Shown one piece after another: positions 3,384 through 59,452 of a stretch of DNA of 64,000 bases (the stretch's first letter is position 1; the number at the start of each line of letters is the position of its first letter). Under the pieces are notes generated by a model. The model saw only the letters and a list, made by a program, of their open reading frames with translations, searched no databases and was not told the origin of the DNA. The stretch comes from Escherichia coli. GTDB lineage: Bacteria > Pseudomonadota > Gammaproteobacteria > Enterobacterales > Enterobacteriaceae. The position numbers and the translations under genes are program-made. The stretch is taken from assembly GCF_009931435.1 (NCBI RefSeq), contig NZ_CP043414.1, one strand, 5' to 3'.

Positions 3384-4037
3384 ATGAATCAGACGCTACT
3401 TTCCTCTTTTGGTACGCCTTTCGAACGTGTTGAAAATGCACTGGCTGCGCTGCGTGAAGGACGCGGTGTAATGGTGCTTGATGATGAAGACCGTGAAAAC
3501 GAAGGCGATATGATCTTCCCGGCAGAAACCATGACCGTTGAGCAGATGGCGCTGACCATTCGCCACGGTAGCGGTATTGTTTGCCTGTGCATCACTGAAG
3601 ATCGCCGTAAACAACTCGATCTGCCAATGATGGTAGAAAATAACACCAGCGCCTATGGCACCGGTTTTACCGTGACCATTGAAGCGGCTGAAGGGGTGAC
3701 TACCGGTGTTTCTGCCGCTGACCGTATTACGACCGTTCGTGCTGCGATTGCCGATGGCGCTAAACCTTCTGATCTGAATCGTCCTGGCCACGTTTTCCCA
3801 CTGCGCGCGCAGGCGGGTGGTGTGCTGACGCGTGGCGGCCATACCGAAGCGACTATTGATCTGATGACGCTGGCAGGCTTTAAACCAGCTGGTGTGTTGT
3901 GTGAGCTGACTAATGACGATGGCACGATGGCGCGTGCGCCAGAGTGCATTGAGTTTGCCAAGAAACACAATATGGCGCTCGTGACTATTGAAGACCTGGT
4001 GGCATACCGTCAGGCACATGAGCGTAAAGCTAGCTGA
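3384..4037 (+). CDS. ribB: 3,4-dihydroxy-2-butanone 4-phosphate synthase
   Basis: ORF track 217 aa; sequence recognised as RibB. Confidence 0.95.
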
Positions 4038-4071
4038 AAACCGCTGCTTAATTTACCGCGTTAATCAAGAA

Positions 4072-4104
4072 ACCGAAGCTATTACTGGCTTCGGTTTTTA
4101 TTTT
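4072..4104 (+). terminator. ribB intrinsic terminator
   Basis: Hairpin accgaagct...ggcttcggt followed by tttttatttt. Confidence 0.7.
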
Positions 4105-4299
4105 GCTCTTGTTATGCAAGATGTTAATTCCTCTTCTCTTTCTATGAGAAAATTTCATTAATATCAGGCATTCTTTTCCATTATGATCAAAATCATATAA
4201 TTGTTCCGTTATTATGCGACCATATGAATATATCCGAAAAAGGATATGTGAATTTTATGCGCTAAATGTTTAGTATTGTTAAATATTAAGGGTAAAAGG

Positions 4300-4470
4300 A
4301 TGTTTATCGCCTGGTACTGGATTGTATTGATTGCTCTGGTTGTGGTGGGTTATTTACTGCATTTGAAACGTTATTGTCGGGCGTTTCGTCAGGACAGAGA
4401 CGCACTGCTTGAAGCGCGGAATAAATACTTAAACAGTACGAGAGAAGAGACAGCCGAGAAGGTAGAATAG
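4300..4470 (+). CDS. Candidate small single-pass membrane protein (56 aa)
   Basis: ATG at 4300 preceded by SD aaaagga; hydrophobic helix FIAWYWIVLIALVVVGYLL followed by charged tail; terminator-like hairpin 4487..4517 downstream. Confidence 0.45.
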   Translation: MFIAWYWIVLIALVVVGYLLHLKRYCRAFRQDRDALLEARNKYLNSTREETAEKVE

Positions 4471-4527
4471 GGCTTTAGTGAAGCTGGCAGAAGTTGTCCA
4501 TGCGCTGGACAACTTCTGATGTTGCTT

Positions 4528-5301
4528 TTAACCAATTCCCGCCGTTTGTAGTAGCACTAAACTGAATCCCATCACTGACATTCCACATAGCACGCCATAG
4601 CTGGGGTTATTATTGGGGTCAATCTCTTTAGCTAGCGGCATTAATTCATCAACCGAGAGCGCCACCATAATTCCTGCAACCGCCGCCATGATTGCCGCCA
4701 TGACCACCGGAGAAATCATGCTACCGAGGATTAACCACGCCAGAACACCACCAAGAATTTCTGCCAGCCCAGAAATGCCCGCCCACAAAATTGCGGTGCG
4801 TTTTGACCCCGTTGCCGCGTAAACCGGCCCCGCAACTGCCAGACCTTCAGGAATATTATGCAATGCAACAGCCAGCGCGATGCCAAAGCCCAGCTCCAGG
4901 TTACTGCTCGCCGTGACAAAGGTGGCAATGCCTTCCGGGAAGTTATGCAGACTGATGCCGAGAGTGAGCAGAATGGCTGTGCGCTTGATCGATTTTGGCA
5001 ACGGCTGCACCGATTTTTGCATTAAATCCTGCGGATGCGCATGTGGCAACATGCGGTCCAGACCAAAATAGCCAAGCAGACCGAAGATAAACATTCCATA
5101 ACCCAGCACAGGCGACATTCCTTCGGCGGCTAATGCGGCAGGAAGCATTTCCATTAATGAGATGAGCAACATAATCCCCGCCGCAAATCCTAGCGAAAAC
5201 GCCAGTAAGCGGTTCGAGGGTTTTTGTCCGAGAACGCCGAGAAACGCGCCAATAAACGTGGCTGCCCCCGCCAGTATGGTCAGAATGAGAGGTACTGACA
5301 T
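4528..5301 (-). CDS. zupT: Zinc transporter ZupT (ZIP family), 257 aa
   Basis: ORF track frame; start chosen at [12 protein letters not shown]; processed length matches K-12 ZupT. Confidence 0.9.
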
Positions 5302-9736: not shown

Positions 9737-9940
9737 TTGCATTCCTTGTGGTGAAGCAGTATTTAGCGCGATCAAACTGTAAAATTATTGCGGATTCTAG
9801 CAGAAGCCGCTACCGCAAAAGGTTGGCGTTACGTGCCATAGGGCGTTAATGTGCCTCAATTTAACACATGACTGCTCAAACGGCAGTCAAACGTCGCTGA
9901 AATTCACATTTAATTCACTATTAGTGCCAGGACATTAACA

Positions 9941-22575: not shown

Positions 22576-22891
22576 TTTTTAACCTCAAGGTGAGACGTTT
22601 GCCGACTATAGTACGTCACAGAGCGGTACGGTGAAATTAGCAAAATGTGCAAAGTCTTTTGCGAATTTAGCAAAAGTCTGATCTTGCTCCGATTCACCGA
22701 TGCAGGATAAATATTTTCTGAAAATGACAATACTGATAGCCATTCCTCATAATTCCTACTCGCACCGGATTAATTTACAGGTTTGGTTCGGTTTTTTGGG
22801 GATTAAAAATATGGCGTTGGATAAGTAAAAATGAAAATATCAACGCGTCACGTTGATAATTATAAATGGATTTTTATGAGCGTGCTAACAT

Positions 22892-23224
22892 ATGTTAAAG
22901 CATAAAATTCAAACAATATTTGAAGCTCTGTTATATATAGTGCTTACTTATTGGTTAATAGATGCTTTTTTTGCATTCAATAAGTATGACTGGATGCTTG
23001 AGTCGGGAGACAATATTTGCAGTATACCTTCCGTTTCAGGCGAAGATCGTATATTGCAAACAATGATTGCAGCATTTTTTCTTCTGACGCCACTTATTAT
23101 TCTTATCTTAAGAAAACTCTTTGTGCGAGAAATCTTTGAGTTTTGGTTATATGTAATCTCGCTCGTTATTTGTTTGGTTTGTGGTTGGTGGCTTTTTTGG
23201 GGACGGTTTATATTTTGCTATTAA
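22892..23224 (+). CDS. ygiZ: Inner membrane protein YgiZ
   Basis: ORF track 110 aa; hydrophobic; strongly AT-rich gene between mdaB and qseC. Confidence 0.75.
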   Translation: MLKHKIQTIFEALLYIVLTYWLIDAFFAFNKYDWMLESGDNICSIPSVSGEDRILQTMIAAFFLLTPLIILILRKLFVREIFEFWLYVISLVICLVCGWWLFWGRFIFCY

Positions 23225-23269
23225 TAAAATCTATGAGAGTCGTTTTAACGGCTCTCATAGACAGAGAAG

Positions 23270-24619
23270 TTACCAGCTTACTTTCGCCTCAAATCCACCT
23301 TGTTCCGCATTCCCAAACTCAACATTCATGCCATGCAGCTTGGCGATTCGCTGGACAATTGAAAGCCCAAGTCCACTGCCGGTAGCGGTTTGTCCGGGTG
23401 GGCGATAGAAGCGTTCGCCAATTCTCGCCAGTGCCTCTGGTGTCACACCGGGGCCGTTATCCCTCACGATGAAATTATCGGCATTCAGCGTGACGTCCAC
23501 CACGCTACCTTGTGGACTGTAGCGCACGGCGTTATCCAGCAAATTTCGCACCAACAAACTTAGCAATAGCGGTTGTCCGGTGCGTTTGATGCCGTGGGCA
23601 TTGAGTGTCAGTCGCACGTCAATTTTTGCCTGCTGCGCCGTGTGGTAAATATCCATCACCGACGATTGCAGGAGATCTTCAAGCGGGATCTCCGCGACGT
23701 CCTGAAGGTTATCCAGTGAGTCCAGCCGCGATAGCGTGAGCAGTTGATCAACCAGACGAGTAGCACGATCGATCCCGGAATGTAATTGGAGCAGCGCTTT
23801 TTTCCGCGCCTGCGGATCATCGTCAGAGAGCTGCGCAACTTCGGTTTGCACTTTCAGCGCCGTTAACGGGCTTCGTAGTTCATGCGCTGCGTCGGAGGTA
23901 AAGCGTCGTTCACGAACCATCATCGCATGTGTGCGGGCGAACAGTTGATTTAGCGACTCAACCAGTGGACGCACTTCGCTGGGTACGCCCGTCGCGTTTA
24001 GTGGTTTTTCCGAGTCAGGGTCACGCATACGTAGTGCCAGCGCCAGTTTGTTCAGCGGCGCGAGTTCACGACCCAGTAGTACCATCATGATGATTAACAT
24101 AATCGGCAGTGCGACAAGCCACGGGATCAATTGCCCGGCAACAATTGCCAGCGCCATGTCTTCGCGGTATTCCCATTCCTGACCAACAACGATGCGATAT
24201 TTGCCATCAGGTGAGGTCATCCAGACAAAACGCCAGGGATCGTCTTCACCGACCAGTTGCCCGTCAGCAAAACCTTCCCGTTGATAGCTATAGGGAATAT
24301 CTTCTCCGTTATCCCCATCATTAAGGACCATTCTGCCGTCGTGGGTAAAGATGGCAAAGGTCAGCGCATCGTCATCAACATGACCGTGTTTTAATTTATT
24401 TGGCGTCTGTGCCATGCGATCCGCCGCGTTGATTTCGTTGAGATCGAGCGTACTTAACCGTTTGGCAAACAGCATCAGTTGGGTGTCGAACAACTCATCG
24501 ACGTTATCCGTTGTTTGTTTCCAGGCGACAAAGCTGGAAAGCAGCCAGGTCACCGAGGCCAGAATTAAAAAGATTAGCGTCAGCCTGACTCGCAGACTAA
24601 GACGTTGGGTAAATTTCAT
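23270..24619 (-). CDS. qseC: Sensor histidine kinase QseC
   Basis: ORF track 449 aa; HisKA motif HELRSPL and HATPase region; overlaps qseB stop. Confidence 0.9.
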
Positions 24620-35796: not shown

Positions 35797-35846
35797 ATAG
35801 TGTTCCCTTTTATTTATTGTTCCGGCTAATTGTTATTTAATTCAGC

Positions 35847-36773
35847 TCATTGCTTTAATCTGGCGGCGGTTTTTGCCTCAATCTGCTTAAGTAGGCTGCC
35901 GCTATTCGGGCGGATAAAATCAGCGATTTCCCACTTACCTTCGCGCCGCTGTAAAACCAGTTCTTGCTCTTCATTGTTGCCATTGGTCAGCGTAAAACGA
36001 ACATGAATGCGGGCGGAATCGGCGGTTTTCTCCAGGACACGGATTTCATCAACGCGTGAAAATAGCGACTCTTCGCCAAAACAGATCGGATTGTCGTAAA
36101 TAAATTGCCGTTCTATTTGCATATCTTCATCGGGATTGTTGGCAGTCTTGAAGGTGGTTTTATAGAAGGCATTGACCGCCTGGCGGTAAGAGTCGGAAAC
36201 CACCCACGTCCACGGCCAGCTATAATCAGCAATATGTTCAAAGAGTTCGGCAACAAAGGCTTCCGGCTGTTCTTTTTGCAACGAAGCTATAGCGGCCAGC
36301 GTTTTTTCATTCTCGCTATTAACTGCTTGTAAGACGCTGCCATGATTGCTGACAATATCGTCAATGATCCAACGACCATTTTCCGCCACCATTTTCAGTG
36401 TCTGCGTGGTCTTTTCTTTATCGTCTTTAAAGATACGAAAGCGCACAACGGCATCGGCATGATCGGCGTCAGGTTGGGTTATCGCTACGCTTTCTAACAC
36501 CAGATCGCCAAAATCCTGACAATCACAAACCGGATCATAATCCAGCCAGCCAATATTGCCCGGTAGTGTAAGATTGTCGTTCAGGGTAAGCGCCTGTTGA
36601 ATACGCGCTGAAGTTATCGCCCGCTCTCCGGTTTCACCGAAATAAGGCGTACTGGCATCTGATTTATAGTTCTGATAAATCTGCCGGACTGTTTGTTCTA
36701 CGGTCTGTGAAGGAGGCTGCGCGTGTACGGTAAAACTTGCCAGGGCTGCTAAAAACAGAAGTATTATTTTCAT
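35847..36773 (-). CDS. yqhG: DUF3828 periplasmic protein YqhG
   Basis: ORF track 308 aa; signal peptide; synteny. Confidence 0.8.
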   Translation of the reverse strand: MKIILLFLAALASFTVHAQPPSQTVEQTVRQIYQNYKSDASTPYFGETGERAITSARIQQALTLNDNLTLPGNIGWLDYDPVCDCQDFGDLVLESVAITQPDADHADAVVRFRIFKDDKEKTTQTLKMVAENGRWIIDDIVSNHGSVLQAVNSENEKTLAAIASLQKEQPEAFVAELFEHIADYSWPWTWVVSDSYRQAVNAFYKTTFKTANNPDEDMQIERQFIYDNPICFGEESLFSRVDEIRVLEKTADSARIHVRFTLTNGNNEEQELVLQRREGKWEIADFIRPNSGSLLKQIEAKTAARLKQ

Positions 36774-36972
36774 CTGTTTTTCACCTCTCCGTTGCGTTTA
36801 TCCCGGGTGTAGATGAGTTGTTCCTTTAAGAGCTTCCGGCTCTGCATGATGATGTCCTTATATTTGGCATTCCTGAACAAGGAAGAGTAACAATGGGCAG
36901 GACGCGAGGGGAATAAATGATTTCTGAAAAGTCCGGTAGCGGAACATTACCGCCACCGGGAGAATTTGCACG

Positions 36973-55801: not shown

Positions 55802-57661
55802 ATGAGCAAAGGAACGACCAGCCAGGATGCCCCGTTCGGGACATTATTGGGCTACGCCCCAGGTGGGGTAGCAATCTACTCTTCAGATTACAGTTCTCTC
55901 GATCCGCAGGAATACGAAGATGACGCCGTATTCCGTAGCTATATCGACGACGAATATATGGGCCACAAATGGCAATGCGTTGAATTTGCTCGCCGTTTTC
56001 TCTTTCTGAATTACGGTGTGGTCTTCACTGACGTGGGTATGGCGTGGGAGATTTTCTCGCTGCGCTTCCTGCGTGAAGTGGTTAATGACAACATCCTGCC
56101 ATTGCAGGCATTTCCTAACGGCTCGCCGCGTGCGCCGGTCGCGGGTGCGCTTCTTATCTGGGATAAAGGCGGTGAATTTAAAGACACTGGCCATGTCGCC
56201 ATCATTACCCAATTGCATGGCAACAAAGTCCGTATTGCGGAACAGAACGTGATTCATTCCCCGTTACCGCAAGGGCAACAGTGGACACGCGAGCTGGAGA
56301 TGGTGGTCGAAAACGGCTGCTATACCCTTAAAGACACGTTTGATGACACCACCATTCTGGGCTGGATGATCCAGACGGAAGATACCGACTACAGCTTACC
56401 GCAGCCGGAAATTGCAGGCGAGCTGCTGAAAATCAGCGGAGCGCGTCTGGAAAACAAAGGCCAATTTGATGGTAAATGGCTGGATGAAAAAGATCCGCTG
56501 CAAAACGCCTACGTGCAGGCGAACGGTCAAGTGATCAATCAGGATCCGTATCATTTTTACACCATTACCGAGAGTGCCGAACAGGAGCTGATTAAAGCCA
56601 CCAACGAGCTGCACTTGATGTATCTTCACGCTACCGACAAGGTGCTAAAAGATGACAATCTGCTGGCGCTGTTCGACATTCCGAAAATCCTCTGGCCGCG
56701 TTTGCGCCTCTCCTGGCAGCGTCGCCGTCACCATATGATCACCGGTCGTATGGATTTCTGCATGGACGAACGTGGCCTGAAGGTCTACGAATACAACGCC
56801 GATTCCGCCTCCTGTCATACCGAAGCGGGCTTGATCCTCGAACGTTGGGCGGAGCAGGGCTATAAAGGCAACGGCTTCAATCCTGCGGAAGGGCTGATTA
56901 ACGAACTGGCTGGTGCCTGGAAACACAGTCGTGCACGTCCGTTTGTCCATATCATGCAGGACAAAGATATCGAGGAAAACTATCACGCGCAGTTTATGGA
57001 GCAGGCGCTGCACCAGGCGGGCTTTGAAACGCGTATCTTGCGTGGGTTGGATGAACTGGGCTGGGATGCTGCCGGGCAACTGATTGATGGGGAAGGGCGA
57101 CTGGTTAACTGCGTGTGGAAAACCTGGGCGTGGGAAACCGCGTTTGATCAGATTCGTGAAGTTAGCGACCGTGAGTTTGCTGCGGTGCCGATCCGTACCG
57201 GTCATCCGCAAAATGAAGTGCGTTTAATTGACGTATTGCTGCGCCCGGAAGTGCTGGTCTTTGAGCCGCTGTGGACGGTGATCCCCGGCAACAAAGCGAT
57301 TCTGCCGATCCTCTGGTCGCTGTTCCCGCACCATCGTTACCTACTGGATACCGATTTCACTGTTAATGATGAACTGGTAAAAACAGGTTACGCAGTGAAA
57401 CCGATCGCCGGTCGCTGTGGCAGTAACATCGACCTCGTCAGCCATCATGAAGAGGTGCTGGACAAAACCAGCGGTAAATTTGCCGAGCAGAAAAACATTT
57501 ACCAGCAACTGTGGTGCTTGCCGAAAGTGGACGGTAAATACATCCAGGTATGTACTTTCACCGTTGGCGGCAACTACGGTGGGACGTGTTTGCGCGGTGA
57601 TGAATCACTGGTCATCAAAAAAGAGAGTGATATTGAACCGTTAATTGTCGTGAAAGAGTAA
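55802..57661 (+). CDS. gss: Bifunctional glutathionylspermidine synthetase/amidase, 619 aa
   Basis: ORF track frame; start at ATG 55802 (MSKGTTSQDAPF); CHAP amidase N-domain and synthetase C-domain. Confidence 0.9.
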   Translation: MSKGTTSQDAPFGTLLGYAPGGVAIYSSDYSSLDPQEYEDDAVFRSYIDDEYMGHKWQCVEFARRFLFLNYGVVFTDVGMAWEIFSLRFLREVVNDNILPLQAFPNGSPRAPVAGALLIWDKGGEFKDTGHVAIITQLHGNKVRIAEQNVIHSPLPQGQQWTRELEMVVENGCYTLKDTFDDTTILGWMIQTEDTDYSLPQPEIAGELLKISGARLENKGQFDGKWLDEKDPLQNAYVQANGQVINQDPYHFYTITESAEQELIKATNELHLMYLHATDKVLKDDNLLALFDIPKILWPRLRLSWQRRRHHMITGRMDFCMDERGLKVYEYNADSASCHTEAGLILERWAEQGYKGNGFNPAEGLINELAGAWKHSRARPFVHIMQDKDIEENYHAQFMEQALHQAGFETRILRGLDELGWDAAGQLIDGEGRLVNCVWKTWAWETAFDQIREVSDREFAAVPIRTGHPQNEVRLIDVLLRPEVLVFEPLWTVIPGNKAILPILWSLFPHHRYLLDTDFTVNDELVKTGYAVKPIAGRCGSNIDLVSHHEEVLDKTSGKFAEQKNIYQQLWCLPKVDGKYIQVCTFTVGGNYGGTCLRGDESLVIKKESDIEPLIVVKE

Positions 57662-57676
57662 TAGATGTTGTAGCAA

Positions 57677-57711
57677 CCCCGTACTGATTATGAAGAATAA
57701 TCAGTGCGGGG
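57677..57711 (+). terminator. Hairpin downstream of gss
   Basis: ccccgtactgattatgaagaataatcagtgcgggg long inverted repeat; weak U-tract. Confidence 0.5.
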
Positions 57712-57952
57712 ATTAATCAAAATATTCAATATTTATATATTTCAATGTCTATTCATTTTATATGTGAATATATTAACCAGCAGAATACCTGTGTTCTAAT
57801 TATTTTTAAATATTTTGAATGAATGCTTATTGTTTGATACCCAAGAAATAACTCTCTTTTTATCGTTAAAAGATGATATTTCACTTTGCCCGCGCCGTGA
57901 AAGTCACTGATAATGCGTTCGTTCGTAAATTCAAAATGGCGTAATCTAATAT

Positions 57953-59452
57953 ATGCTAAATTTATTTGTTGGCCTTGATATATACACAGGGCTTTTGTTA
58001 TTACTTGCTCTGGCATTTGTGTTGTTCTACGAAGCAATCAATGGTTTTCATGACACGGCGAATGCGGTGGCAACCGTTATTTATACTCGTGCCATGCAGC
58101 CACAGCTTGCCGTGGTGATGGCGGCATTTTTTAACTTTTTTGGCGTATTGCTAGGCGGACTTAGCGTTGCCTATGCCATTGTCCATATGTTGCCAACCGA
58201 TTTGTTGCTGAATATGGGGTCAACTCACGGCCTGGCGATGGTCTTTTCCATGCTGCTGGCGGCGATTATCTGGAACCTGGGAACGTGGTTCTTTGGTTTA
58301 CCGGCCTCCAGTTCGCATACCTTGATTGGTGCGATTATCGGCATCGGTTTAACCAACGCGCTTTTAACCGGCTCATCGGTGATGGATGCGTTAAACCTGC
58401 GTGAAGTGACCAAAATTTTCTCCTCGCTGATTGTTTCCCCTATCGTCGGCCTGGTCATTGCGGGAGGCCTGATATTCCTGCTGCGCCGCTACTGGAGCGG
58501 GACGAAAAAGCGTGACCGTATTCACCGCATTCCGGAAGATCGCAAAAAGAAAAAAGGCAAACGTAAGCCACCATTCTGGACGCGTATTGCGCTGATTGTT
58601 TCCGCTGCGGGCGTGGCGTTTTCGCACGGCGCGAACGACGGACAGAAAGGGATCGGCTTGGTGATGCTGGTACTGGTGGGGATTGCTCCTGCTGGTTTCG
58701 TCGTCAATATGAATGCGTCCGGCTATGAAATTACCCGTACCCGCGATGCCGTCACCAACTTTGAACACTATCTGCAACAGCATCCTGAACTGCCGCAGAA
58801 GTTGATTGCGATGGAACCTCCATTGCCTGCGGCATCGACTGATGGCACGCAAGTAACGGAGTTTCATTGTCATCCGGCAAATACCTTTGATGCGATTGCG
58901 CGCGTTAAAACGATGTTGCCAGGTAATATGGAAAGCTACGAACCGTTAAGCGTGAGTCAGCGCAGCCAGCTGCGCCGCATTATGCTGTGCATCTCTGATA
59001 CCTCTGCGAAGCTGGCGAAACTGCCAGGCGTCAGTAAAGAAGATCAGAACCTGTTGAAAAAACTGCGCAGTGATATGTTAAGCACCATTGAGTACGCTCC
59101 GGTGTGGATCATCATGGCGGTAGCACTGGCGCTCGGCATTGGCACCATGATTGGCTGGCGTCGTGTAGCGATGACCATCGGTGAGAAGATTGGTAAGCGC
59201 GGCATGACGTATGCGCAAGGCATGGCGGCACAAATGACGGCGGCAGTGTCTATCGGCCTTGCCAGTTATATTGGGATGCCCGTCTCCACAACGCACGTAC
59301 TCTCATCTGCGGTAGCAGGGACGATGGTGGTGGACGGCGGTGGGTTACAGCGTAAAACGGTAACCAGCATCCTGATGGCGTGGGTGTTTACTTTACCGGC
59401 GGCGATTTTTCTGTCCGGTGGGTTGTACTGGATAGCATTGCAGTTGATTTAA
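57953..59452 (+). CDS. pitB: Low-affinity inorganic phosphate transporter (Pit family)
   Basis: ORF track 499 aa; PiT family; position relative to gss as in K-12. Confidence 0.85.

Follow-up and report, generated by a model that had tools for sequence, protein, structure and literature searches.

Why does a short, strongly AT-rich gene for a small membrane protein lie between two genes of ordinary base composition on the Escherichia coli chromosome, and to what did it once belong? The gene is ygiZ (22892-23224, plus strand, 110 amino acids), and the question is pursued here in a 64-kb stretch of E. coli DNA (contig NZ_CP043414.1, hereafter the window, to which all positions refer). On the left, ygiZ is flanked by mdaB (21994-22575, minus strand), an open reading frame (ORF) of 193 amino acids named as the NADPH:quinone oxidoreductase gene in matching genomes, and on the right by qseC (23270-24619, minus strand), an ORF likewise so named in matching genomes. 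The full gene order at the locus is ygiN (21649-21963, minus strand), mdaB, ygiZ, qseC, and then qseB. The closest complete E. coli genomes are 99.4-99.6% identical to the window, and none is identical to it. The explanation that accounts best for the data as a whole, and that we consider probable, is that ygiZ sits in the decayed remnant of a mobile three-gene type VI secretion system (T6SS) cassette and has been kept there as an orphan antidote.

An earlier note on this DNA, made from the sequence alone, had described the mdaB-ygiZ intergenic region and ygiZ as far more AT-rich than the flanking genes, and the computed composition bears this out. The span 22576-23224 has a GC content of 35.1% and the ygiZ coding sequence one of 33.3%, compared with 49.7% for mdaB, 52.6% for qseC, 50.8% for ygiN, and 50.9% for the whole 64 kb. 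In a sliding-window analysis, 200-nt windows within 22700-23300 range from 28.5 to 37%, against about 50% on either side, and the 590-nt stretch with the lowest GC content of the entire 64 kb (33.7%) is found at 22641-23230. The islet as bounded by natural alleles (22680-23269, see below) lies far below the norm (34.4% GC, z = -4.0); no more than 0.14% of 590-nt windows reach so low a value.

The origin of this DNA becomes apparent when natural alleles of the site are compared. Among 5,426 complete E. coli genomes, three classes were distinguished. A three-gene allele, in which a gene of the Hcp family of T6SS proteins and a hypothetical gene for a 236-amino-acid protein precede ygiZ, is present in 1,262 genomes (23%). 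A ygiZ-only allele, the class to which the window belongs, is carried by 3,324 genomes (61%), and the remaining 825 (15%), O157:H7 among them, have an empty allele with about 110 bp between the mdaB start and the qseC stop. The empty allele aligns with 100% identity to the window up to 22679 and again from 23270, and the foreign, AT-rich islet is therefore 22680-23269 (plus strand, 590 bp), in place of which the empty allele has 5 bp (TACCC). Its right edge coincides with the qseC stop codon. Salmonella, Klebsiella, and Enterobacter also show the empty arrangement at the mdaB-qseC site, and the presence/absence polymorphism within E. coli together with the absence from these genera supports the horizontal origin suggested in the earlier note. 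What had been treated there as one mdaB-ygiZ intergenic unit in fact consists of two parts, the mdaB promoter (22576-22679) and the 5' part of the islet (22680-22891).

Within the islet, the ygiZ-only and three-gene alleles share both ends and differ in the middle. The left arm (22680-22759, plus strand) is common to the alleles with hcp and effector gene (86-89% identity to loci L002, L011, L015, and L016), and from the ygiZ start rightward the three-gene allele is 93.7% identical to the window. Between these parts lies a segment specific to the ygiZ-only class (22760-22889, plus strand) that holds the ygiZ promoter. This unrelated, AT-rich segment of about 130 bp has, according to blastn, a counterpart in no three-gene allele and occupies the place of the approximately 1.27 kb that encode Hcp and the 236-amino-acid protein, which is called the effector from here on.

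The same three genes are found together well beyond E. coli. The hcp product, a tube protein, matches TIGR03344 (TssD) with an E-value of 2e-58, and in all contexts that were fetched the order is constant: Hcp (159 amino acids), a protein of 236-255 amino acids, and a DUF2645 protein of 108-112 amino acids. Across 7 genera, the gene junctions abut, overlap by 4 bp, or leave a gap of up to 9 bp. The surroundings of this triad vary. In Citrobacter, cryptic Escherichia, and Pseudocitrobacter it occupies the mdaB-qseC site as in E. coli, in Pectobacterium it lies between pagP and an EamA transporter gene, and in Chania it stands next to transposase fragments. In Serratia it is carried on a 75.6-kb record (CP072744.1) that is probably a plasmid, as a RepB-family gene adjoins the triad, and a further copy is found on a metagenome contig of 1.8 kb, which is too short to provide flanking context. 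Homologues of the effector make up a small family whose members, each annotated as hypothetical, come from E. coli, Citrobacter, Pectobacterium, Erwinia, Serratia, and Chania. Adjacent, co-oriented genes beside a T6SS structural gene, the hallmark of an effector-immunity module, are thus present in the relatives and not within the window. The cassette has a GC content of 34-41% in four genera, where its flanks have 51-53%, and of about 50% in Chania and on the Serratia record. The AT-richness of the islet is probably a property of the cassette itself, which is AT-rich in most hosts.

The DUF2645 family is tiny: searching 1.84 billion representative proteins exhaustively with a profile yielded 31 clusters, and scanning 100,044 species genomes yielded 8 loci. 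Six of these loci are triads, and the other two (Escherichia whittamii and Serratia oryzae) are orphans. The match of YgiZ to the Pfam model PF10840 is clear (45.4 bits against a cut-off of 25, E-value 1.3e-11, profile positions 5-98 of 98), and the window copy is 89-90% identical to the copies that follow hcp and the effector gene in L002 and L011. Taken with the shared synteny, this makes the descent of the islet from the three-gene cassette nearly certain. The earlier picture of ygiZ as an AT-rich foreign gene thus holds, and its picture as an anonymous gene does not, as ygiZ is the last gene of a conserved hcp-effector-DUF2645 cassette that lacks its first two genes in the window.

The direction of the change also has to be considered. 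The ygiZ-only arrangement could be the original one, to which hcp and the effector gene were added later. Such an order of events would be in line with the segment 22760-22889, which contains no trace of either gene: in a tblastn search with 44 Hcp and effector sequences against 22680-22900, only short noise, mostly on the wrong strand, and no relic was found, and a resemblance between DNYKWIF and DDYKFIS that had been considered was not supported. It would also agree with the age of the ygiZ-only allele, which is shared with E. whittamii (88% identity over the whole compared stretch, window 22680-22895). Between ygiZ-only and linked alleles within E. coli, the synonymous divergence (dS) of ygiZ is 0.18, three times the mdaB value of 0.057, and the polymorphism is therefore old. 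However, the complete triad is found in every other genus and on the probable plasmid, at unrelated sites; Citrobacter and Pseudocitrobacter carry it at the mdaB-qseC site itself; and partly decayed triads exist, since in some Citrobacter Hcp is cut to 112 amino acids or the effector is split into 150 and 90 amino acids. We therefore regard a later addition of the two genes as very improbable. Between Citrobacter and E. coli, dS is about 1.0 for ygiZ and mdaB alike, so that the presence of the cassette at this site goes back approximately to the split between the two lineages. The low GC content has lasted since that split and is consequently no sign of a recent arrival, and the acquisition can be called old, as had been suggested.

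The missing effector has no Pfam or NCBIfam match at E-values up to 1 and no sequence or profile match in the PDB, and by these models it is not a member of the soluble lytic transglycosylase (SLT) family. It has neither a signal peptide nor a hydrophobic segment (the maximum 19-residue Kyte-Doolittle mean is 0.87, and the N-terminus is polar) and therefore no export signal; the lack of a Sec or Tat signal is consistent with delivery by a T6SS rather than by general export. In an alignment of the homologues, the invariant residues are W80-I81-E82, T111-S112-x-G114-S115-xxx-Q119, and R187-Y188-N189-R190-G191, and these motifs appear to resemble, in their order and spacing, the ES, GLMQ, and AYNxG motifs of the SLT enzymes (glycoside hydrolase family 23, GH23). 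An AlphaFold (AF2) model built from 18 sequences has a mean predicted confidence (pLDDT) of 70, with a core above 85 and poorly modelled residues 1-43 and 85-114, and the predicted fold appears similar to that of lysozymes and lytic transglycosylases. Two metagenome homologues depart from the standard architecture and may be variants or artefacts of assembly or gene calling. In one, Hcp residues 1-100 are joined in frame to residue 12 onward of the effector, and the other has a 130-amino-acid N-terminal extension with a signal-peptide-like start in front of an effector domain that is 99% identical.

The effector differs from characterized enzymes in several respects. Compared with the GH23 members MltE, Slt70, and MltC, it is recognized neither by Pfam's SLT model nor in PDB searches, it lacks an export signal, and it contains about 45 additional N-terminal amino acids as well as an insert at 85-114, both poorly modelled. 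Compared with the peptidoglycan glycoside-hydrolase effector-immunity pairs of T6SSs, Tge1/Tse3-Tgi1/Tsi3 of P. aeruginosa and Tge2-Tgi2 of P. protegens, it shows no detectable sequence similarity and does not group with Tge1-3; only its predicted fold resembles theirs. Furthermore, its putative partner is a three-helix integral inner-membrane DUF2645 protein, and the effector gene accompanies an orphan hcp, outside a main T6SS cluster or a vgrG island. In its proposed mode of action the system would nevertheless resemble the Tge/Tgi pairs. We describe the pair as a probable new effector/immunity family, present here in an orphan-immunity state and by sequence a member of neither Tge1-3 nor SLT.

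YgiZ itself has some features that support an immunity role. It contains three hydrophobic segments, which are modelled as three long helices (2-29, 50-78, and 81-107). According to the positive-inside rule, the N-terminus and the RKLFVRE loop would be cytoplasmic, and the acidic loop 30-49 and the C-terminal tail periplasmic. The residues that are invariant in the family alignment (Y32, W34, M35, D40, C43, G104, and C109) are all predicted to be on the periplasmic side, where C43 and C109 could form a disulfide. Across the triads, the identity to the E. coli copy is 26-63% for YgiZ, 55-74% for the effector, and 54-75% for Hcp; YgiZ thus diverges fastest, as expected for an antidote that tracks a toxin. 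The ratio of nonsynonymous to synonymous divergence (dN/dS) of ygiZ is 0.21-0.35 overall, compared with 0.02-0.08 for mdaB. For the window copy against E. whittamii, L002, and L015 it is 0.23-0.31, and for the orphan copies of E. coli and E. whittamii it is 0.23, which indicates purifying selection. With its close similarity to the linked copy, the absence of an adjacent effector gene, and its intact and constrained frame, ygiZ corresponds to an orphan immunity gene, provided that the linked copy is an immunity gene. That YgiZ is an immunity protein and that the missing gene encodes a cell-wall toxin is, in our judgement, probable.

Orphan immunity genes of this kind have precedents. Acquired orphan immunity genes are held in the defence islands of Bacteroidales. 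Arrays of immunity genes are known from V. cholerae (Kirchberger 2017, as cited in PMC6730261). Like those genes, ygiZ is an intact homologue that is kept under purifying selection without its effector, and the ygiZ-only state is likewise commoner than the toxin (61% versus 23% of genomes). Unlike them, ygiZ stands by itself, at one fixed position in the chromosome between two housekeeping operons, rather than in an array within a T6SS cluster or in a mobile defence island, and it has its own BglJ-RcsB-dependent promoter. Among the distant relatives, a metagenome contig (L020, 2609-3351) carries two DUF2645 genes in tandem after an MlaD-type ATP-binding cassette (ABC) transport operon, with no hcp or effector gene nearby, and resembles a small immunity-gene array.

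Two other roles for YgiZ need to be weighed at this point. Overexpression of ygiZ has been reported to raise the tolerance of cells to sabinene and to restore cell shape (PMC7181518), the gene is activated by an Rcs-linked regulator, and distant DUF2645 genes stand alone, all of which would suit a general envelope or solvent-stress membrane protein that merely hitch-hikes in a mobile cassette. This would not explain why the triad is kept with tight junctions across genera while its surroundings change, why ygiZ is its fastest-diverging member, or why the invariant residues are predicted to be periplasmic, and retention of the last gene only is the usual fate of immunity genes. A general stress role is thus considered unlikely. 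Alternatively, the effector may be a peptidoglycan-remodelling helper of T6SS assembly, with YgiZ as its membrane anchor or regulator. Some T6SSs indeed recruit cell-wall enzymes such as MltE and TagX for their assembly, and the predicted lytic-transglycosylase fold would fit such a function. However, the effector has no signal peptide or membrane segment by which to reach the producer's own periplasm, and its gene is located in an orphan hcp islet instead of a core T6SS cluster. Moreover, 61% of genomes, presumably including laboratory strains without a T6SS, still have ygiZ despite the loss of hcp and the enzyme gene, which an anchor role would not explain. An assembly function of the pair therefore appears highly improbable.

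According to the explanation favoured here, in which YgiZ is an orphan antidote, a cassette consisting of hcp, the gene of a 236-amino-acid cargo toxin, and ygiZ would have entered the chromosome at the point where the mdaB promoter and the qseC stop codon face each other. The toxin would be carried with Hcp and injected by the T6SS into the periplasm of a neighbouring cell, where it would cleave the glycan strands of peptidoglycan or a membrane-proximal precursor. YgiZ would act as the cognate immunity protein at the outer (periplasmic) face of the inner membrane. In this strain, the weapon genes would have been lost and the antidote retained, and the orphan YgiZ may shield the cell from kin in which the toxin persists. 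The islet would probably be bound by H-NS and switched on by BglJ-RcsB. At a level of confidence just short of even, we further suggest that YgiZ/DUF2645 represents a new class of T6SS immunity protein, namely a three-helix membrane protein with a disulfide-joined loop and tail that serves as a standing antidote and is wired to the BglJ-RcsB envelope regulon.

Several points weigh against this explanation. The effector matches no SLT sequence model, and its fold is taken from an AF2 model of moderate confidence. The known Tgi1-3 immunity proteins are periplasmic soluble proteins or lipoproteins; by analogy, a polytopic membrane protein such as YgiZ would be an unusual partner. The more distant DUF2645 genes occur singly or as a tandem pair without hcp or an effector gene, and increased sabinene tolerance, the sole reported ygiZ phenotype, could be explained by a general membrane role. 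As the window shows no recognizable relic of hcp or the toxin gene, their deletion is deduced from the distribution of the alleles. In the literature searches, which left most subscription journals outside, no experiment on the toxicity or secretion of the effector or on protection by YgiZ was found, nor any report of an hcp islet beside mdaB or of a link between ygiZ or DUF2645 and a T6SS; full-text search found DUF2645 in no paper.

BglJ-RcsB activates the ygiZ promoter from a site whose centre lies 65-68 bp upstream of where transcription starts, and activation was lost when the core motif of this site, wwTTCykA, was mutated (Salscheider et al., PMC3950696). In the window, AATTCCTA (22751-22758, plus strand) fits this core and would put the start near 22820, and it is a candidate for the published site. 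The regulon described in the same text includes H-NS-repressed loci, and sites were also predicted at rhsA and rhsB; ygiZ is not among the loci for which H-NS repression was tested in PMC3950696, and at the spacing of the ygiZ site its authors favour classical activation over counter-silencing. Another published BglJ-RcsB target, yqhG, is located about 13 kb from ygiZ (window approximately 35800-36800, by collinearity with L032, the closest complete genome).

Silencing of the islet by H-NS had been thought probable in the earlier note. The islet has the properties of H-NS-type DNA, being AT-rich (34.4% versus 50.9% GC) and foreign, as judged from its presence/absence polymorphism. Higashi et al. 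(2016; PMC4720273) list 'ygiZ' in their S2 table as an H-NS-bound transcription unit, on the qseB row. Binding of H-NS at the islet is hence likely; for silencing as such, the literature searches found no report of ygiZ de-repression in an hns mutant. The islet resembles the H-NS-bound loci bgl, leuO, and yidL, which are counter-silenced by BglJ-RcsB/LeuO, in being AT-rich, foreign, and listed as H-NS-bound, but differs from them in that its site spacing favours classical activation rather than counter-silencing (PMC3950696).

Two hairpins lie within the islet. The first, TATCAACG-CGTCA-CGTTGATA (22838-22858), has 8-bp arms and a folding energy on the minus strand of -9.3 kcal/mol (z -4.3), is followed on that strand by TTTTCATTTTT, and is kept in E. 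whittamii with one change, located in the loop. It is terminator-like toward the mdaB promoter and could insulate mdaB from leftward read-through or serve as a leader or operator element of ygiZ. The second (23230-23261) lies between the convergent genes ygiZ and qseC, has 15-nt arms and energies of -21.3 kcal/mol (z -7.3) and, on the minus strand, -18.1, and is present in the three-gene allele and absent from the empty allele. As its minus strand is followed by UUUUAUUA, it is probably a qseBC terminator that is carried by the islet. An ORF of 24 amino acids over the ygiZ start (MKISTRHVDNYKWIFMSVLTYVKA, 22832-22906) was considered and rejected: it is kept within E. coli, and in E. whittamii its ATG is lost and the frame is broken. 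No Rfam families were found in 22300-23500.

The sequence repeats to which the earlier note drew attention belong to a different element. The direct repeat GAAATTAGCAAAA / GAATTTAGCAAAA (22633-22645 and 22663-22675, 12 of 13 positions identical, spacing 30) and the dyad GCAAA-GTCT-TTTGC (22649-22662) are indeed present, but they lie outside the islet and occur in all three allele classes, and the assignment of these repeats to the AT-rich islet had to be given up. They are part of the mdaB promoter or regulatory region (22576-22679, minus strand), which is 100% identical in the empty allele and can be aligned in Salmonella, Klebsiella, Enterobacter, Citrobacter, and Pseudocitrobacter. An alignment of the 125-bp mdaB upstream regions was made for nine taxa of six genera (three E. 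coli/Escherichia alleles, E. whittamii, Citrobacter, Pseudocitrobacter, Salmonella, Enterobacter, and Klebsiella), and a 24-bp block (22639-22662; AGCAAAATGTGCAAAGTCTTTTGC on the plus strand, GCAAAAGACTTTGCACATTTTGCT in the sense of mdaB) is invariant in all nine while its surroundings vary. The dyad is contained in this block. The second repeat copy forms a further dyad with it, CTTTTGC-N7-GCAAAAG, and is partly conserved across genera as (A/T)T(T/A)TTGC. Statistically, the direct repeat by itself is marginal, as dinucleotide shuffling of the intergenic region produced an equal one in 13 of 300 trials, and for a 12-nt inverted repeat the 38 of 300 trials indicate no significance; four GCAAA/TTTGC pentamers fall within 51 nt, where 0.21 are expected. 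The real evidence for a function of the repeat region is, at the level of sequence, its perfect conservation across genera. The repeat and the dyad are an ancient control region of mdaB, and the insertion landed just upstream and left this region intact.

A mar/sox/rob-type site for mdaB had also been proposed, and a candidate for it exists. The box TTTGCACATTTTGCTAATTT (22634-22653, minus strand) comprises the first repeat copy and half of the dyad, is predicted to abut the -35 element, and has its RE1 half (GCAC) in the distal position; it ends 25 nt upstream of the -10-like hexamer, a spacing that would suit class II. It (TTTGCACATTTTGCTAATTT, TTTGCACATTTTGCTAATT) has 2 mismatches to AYNGCACNNWNNRYYAAAY (20-bp consensus AYnGCACnnWnnRYYAAAYn); positions 1-15 are inside the invariant block, and the last 5 vary. 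A scan of the window with the consensus gave 14 matches where 18 are expected, so that the motif scan does return the match and yet the match alone has no statistical weight; the candidate is kept because of its position, its conservation, and the published membership of mdaB in the regulon. In class II mar/sox/rob promoters of the fumC and micF type, the box is in forward orientation and overlaps the -35 element. The mdaB box agrees with these promoters in its 20-bp asymmetric consensus, in its predicted orientation and position, and in belonging to a published regulon gene, and differs in that the invariant block reaches 9 bp beyond it upstream. The mar-regulon membership of mdaB was reported by Martin & Rosner (2002, as cited in PMC2989944). 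Since the block extends past the box while the last 5 box positions are variable, more than a single monomer site is conserved, and the block suggests that a second conserved regulatory input at the mdaB promoter is possible. The probable -10 hexamer of mdaB is TACTAT (22608-22613, minus strand), 25 nt downstream of the invariant block in the aligned pattern GTAnnAT; its counterparts are TAGAAT in Salmonella, Citrobacter, and Enterobacter and TATTAT or TAAGAT in other genera.

Two further candidates at this promoter were discarded. A second complete marbox, placed over the repeat copy farther upstream, would have its RE1 half in the islet or variable flank and fits poorly. A palindrome over the mdaB ribosome-binding site, ACCT-CA-AGGT (22582-22591), conforms to the MqsA site pattern ACCT-N(2-4)-AGGT; it has no conserved counterpart in Citrobacter and probably arose by chance. 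In some strains the mqsRA genes map near the region of this palindrome: in L004 the mqsR-mqsA toxin-antitoxin pair directly follows ygiV, and in the closest complete genome (L032, 25866-28064) ygiS does, so that the presence of the pair varies between strains. Elsewhere in the window, the tolC-nudF intergenic region (assigned by collinearity with L032) contains ATGGCACGTAACGCCAACC (9821-9839, minus strand), which was recovered by the same consensus scan with 1 mismatch; a mar/sox/rob box of tolC is known in this region.

With the regulatory evidence in place, the plainest reading of the locus can be judged as well, namely that ygiZ is an old, horizontally acquired, AT-rich membrane-protein gene that is silenced by H-NS and belongs to no larger system, and that the repeats are regulator sites. 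The AT-richness, the H-NS-bound entry 'ygiZ' (PMC4720273), the control by BglJ-RcsB, and the marbox-like site are all in accordance with it. It is incomplete rather than wrong, as it ignores that other genera, and 23% of E. coli, carry the triad at the same site, and it places within the islet repeats that are part of the conserved mdaB promoter. As a full account of the locus we hold it to be quite unlikely and prefer the remnant of a T6SS cassette.

The window also contains other regions of variable composition or content. Shallower GC troughs (36-39% over 590 nt) are found at 1800-2500, 3900-4600, 16200-17000, and 57300-58050, of which the first three are near yqiJ-glgS, yqiD, and a divergent promoter of TonB-receptor and ABC genes, respectively. 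A second variable hotspot extends from parE to ygiN (approximately 14400-21600). Here it is occupied by a TonB-dependent receptor, an iron-siderophore ABC transporter, and an RpiR cluster. Elsewhere parE adjoins ygiN (L001 and L003) or a set of major facilitator superfamily (MFS), GntR, and ADP-ribosylglycohydrolase genes is found (L004), and an Enterobacter locus (L029) also carries an ABC/RpiR set at this hotspot. The MurR/RpiR-family regulator (20716-21604) is represented in the window by ORFs of 230 amino acids (20716-21408) and 86 amino acids (21344-21604); it is a single gene of 295 amino acids in L032, L002, and L011 and is probably a frameshift pseudogene here. Conversely, the siderophore-binding protein gene near it is intact in the window and frameshifted in L032.

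A concrete role of this kind would take ygiZ and DUF2645 off the list of genes and families of unknown function. If the explanation is true, the peptidoglycan glycosidase-like T6SS effectors would gain a fourth family, unrelated to the others in sequence and with an unusual, membrane-embedded immunity partner. Most E. coli, even those without a T6SS, would then keep the antidote, while about a quarter would keep the weapon. The split of 61%, 23%, and 15% at one fixed site would offer a natural system in a gut commensal for the study of how weapons decay and how defences outlive the weapons against which they were raised.

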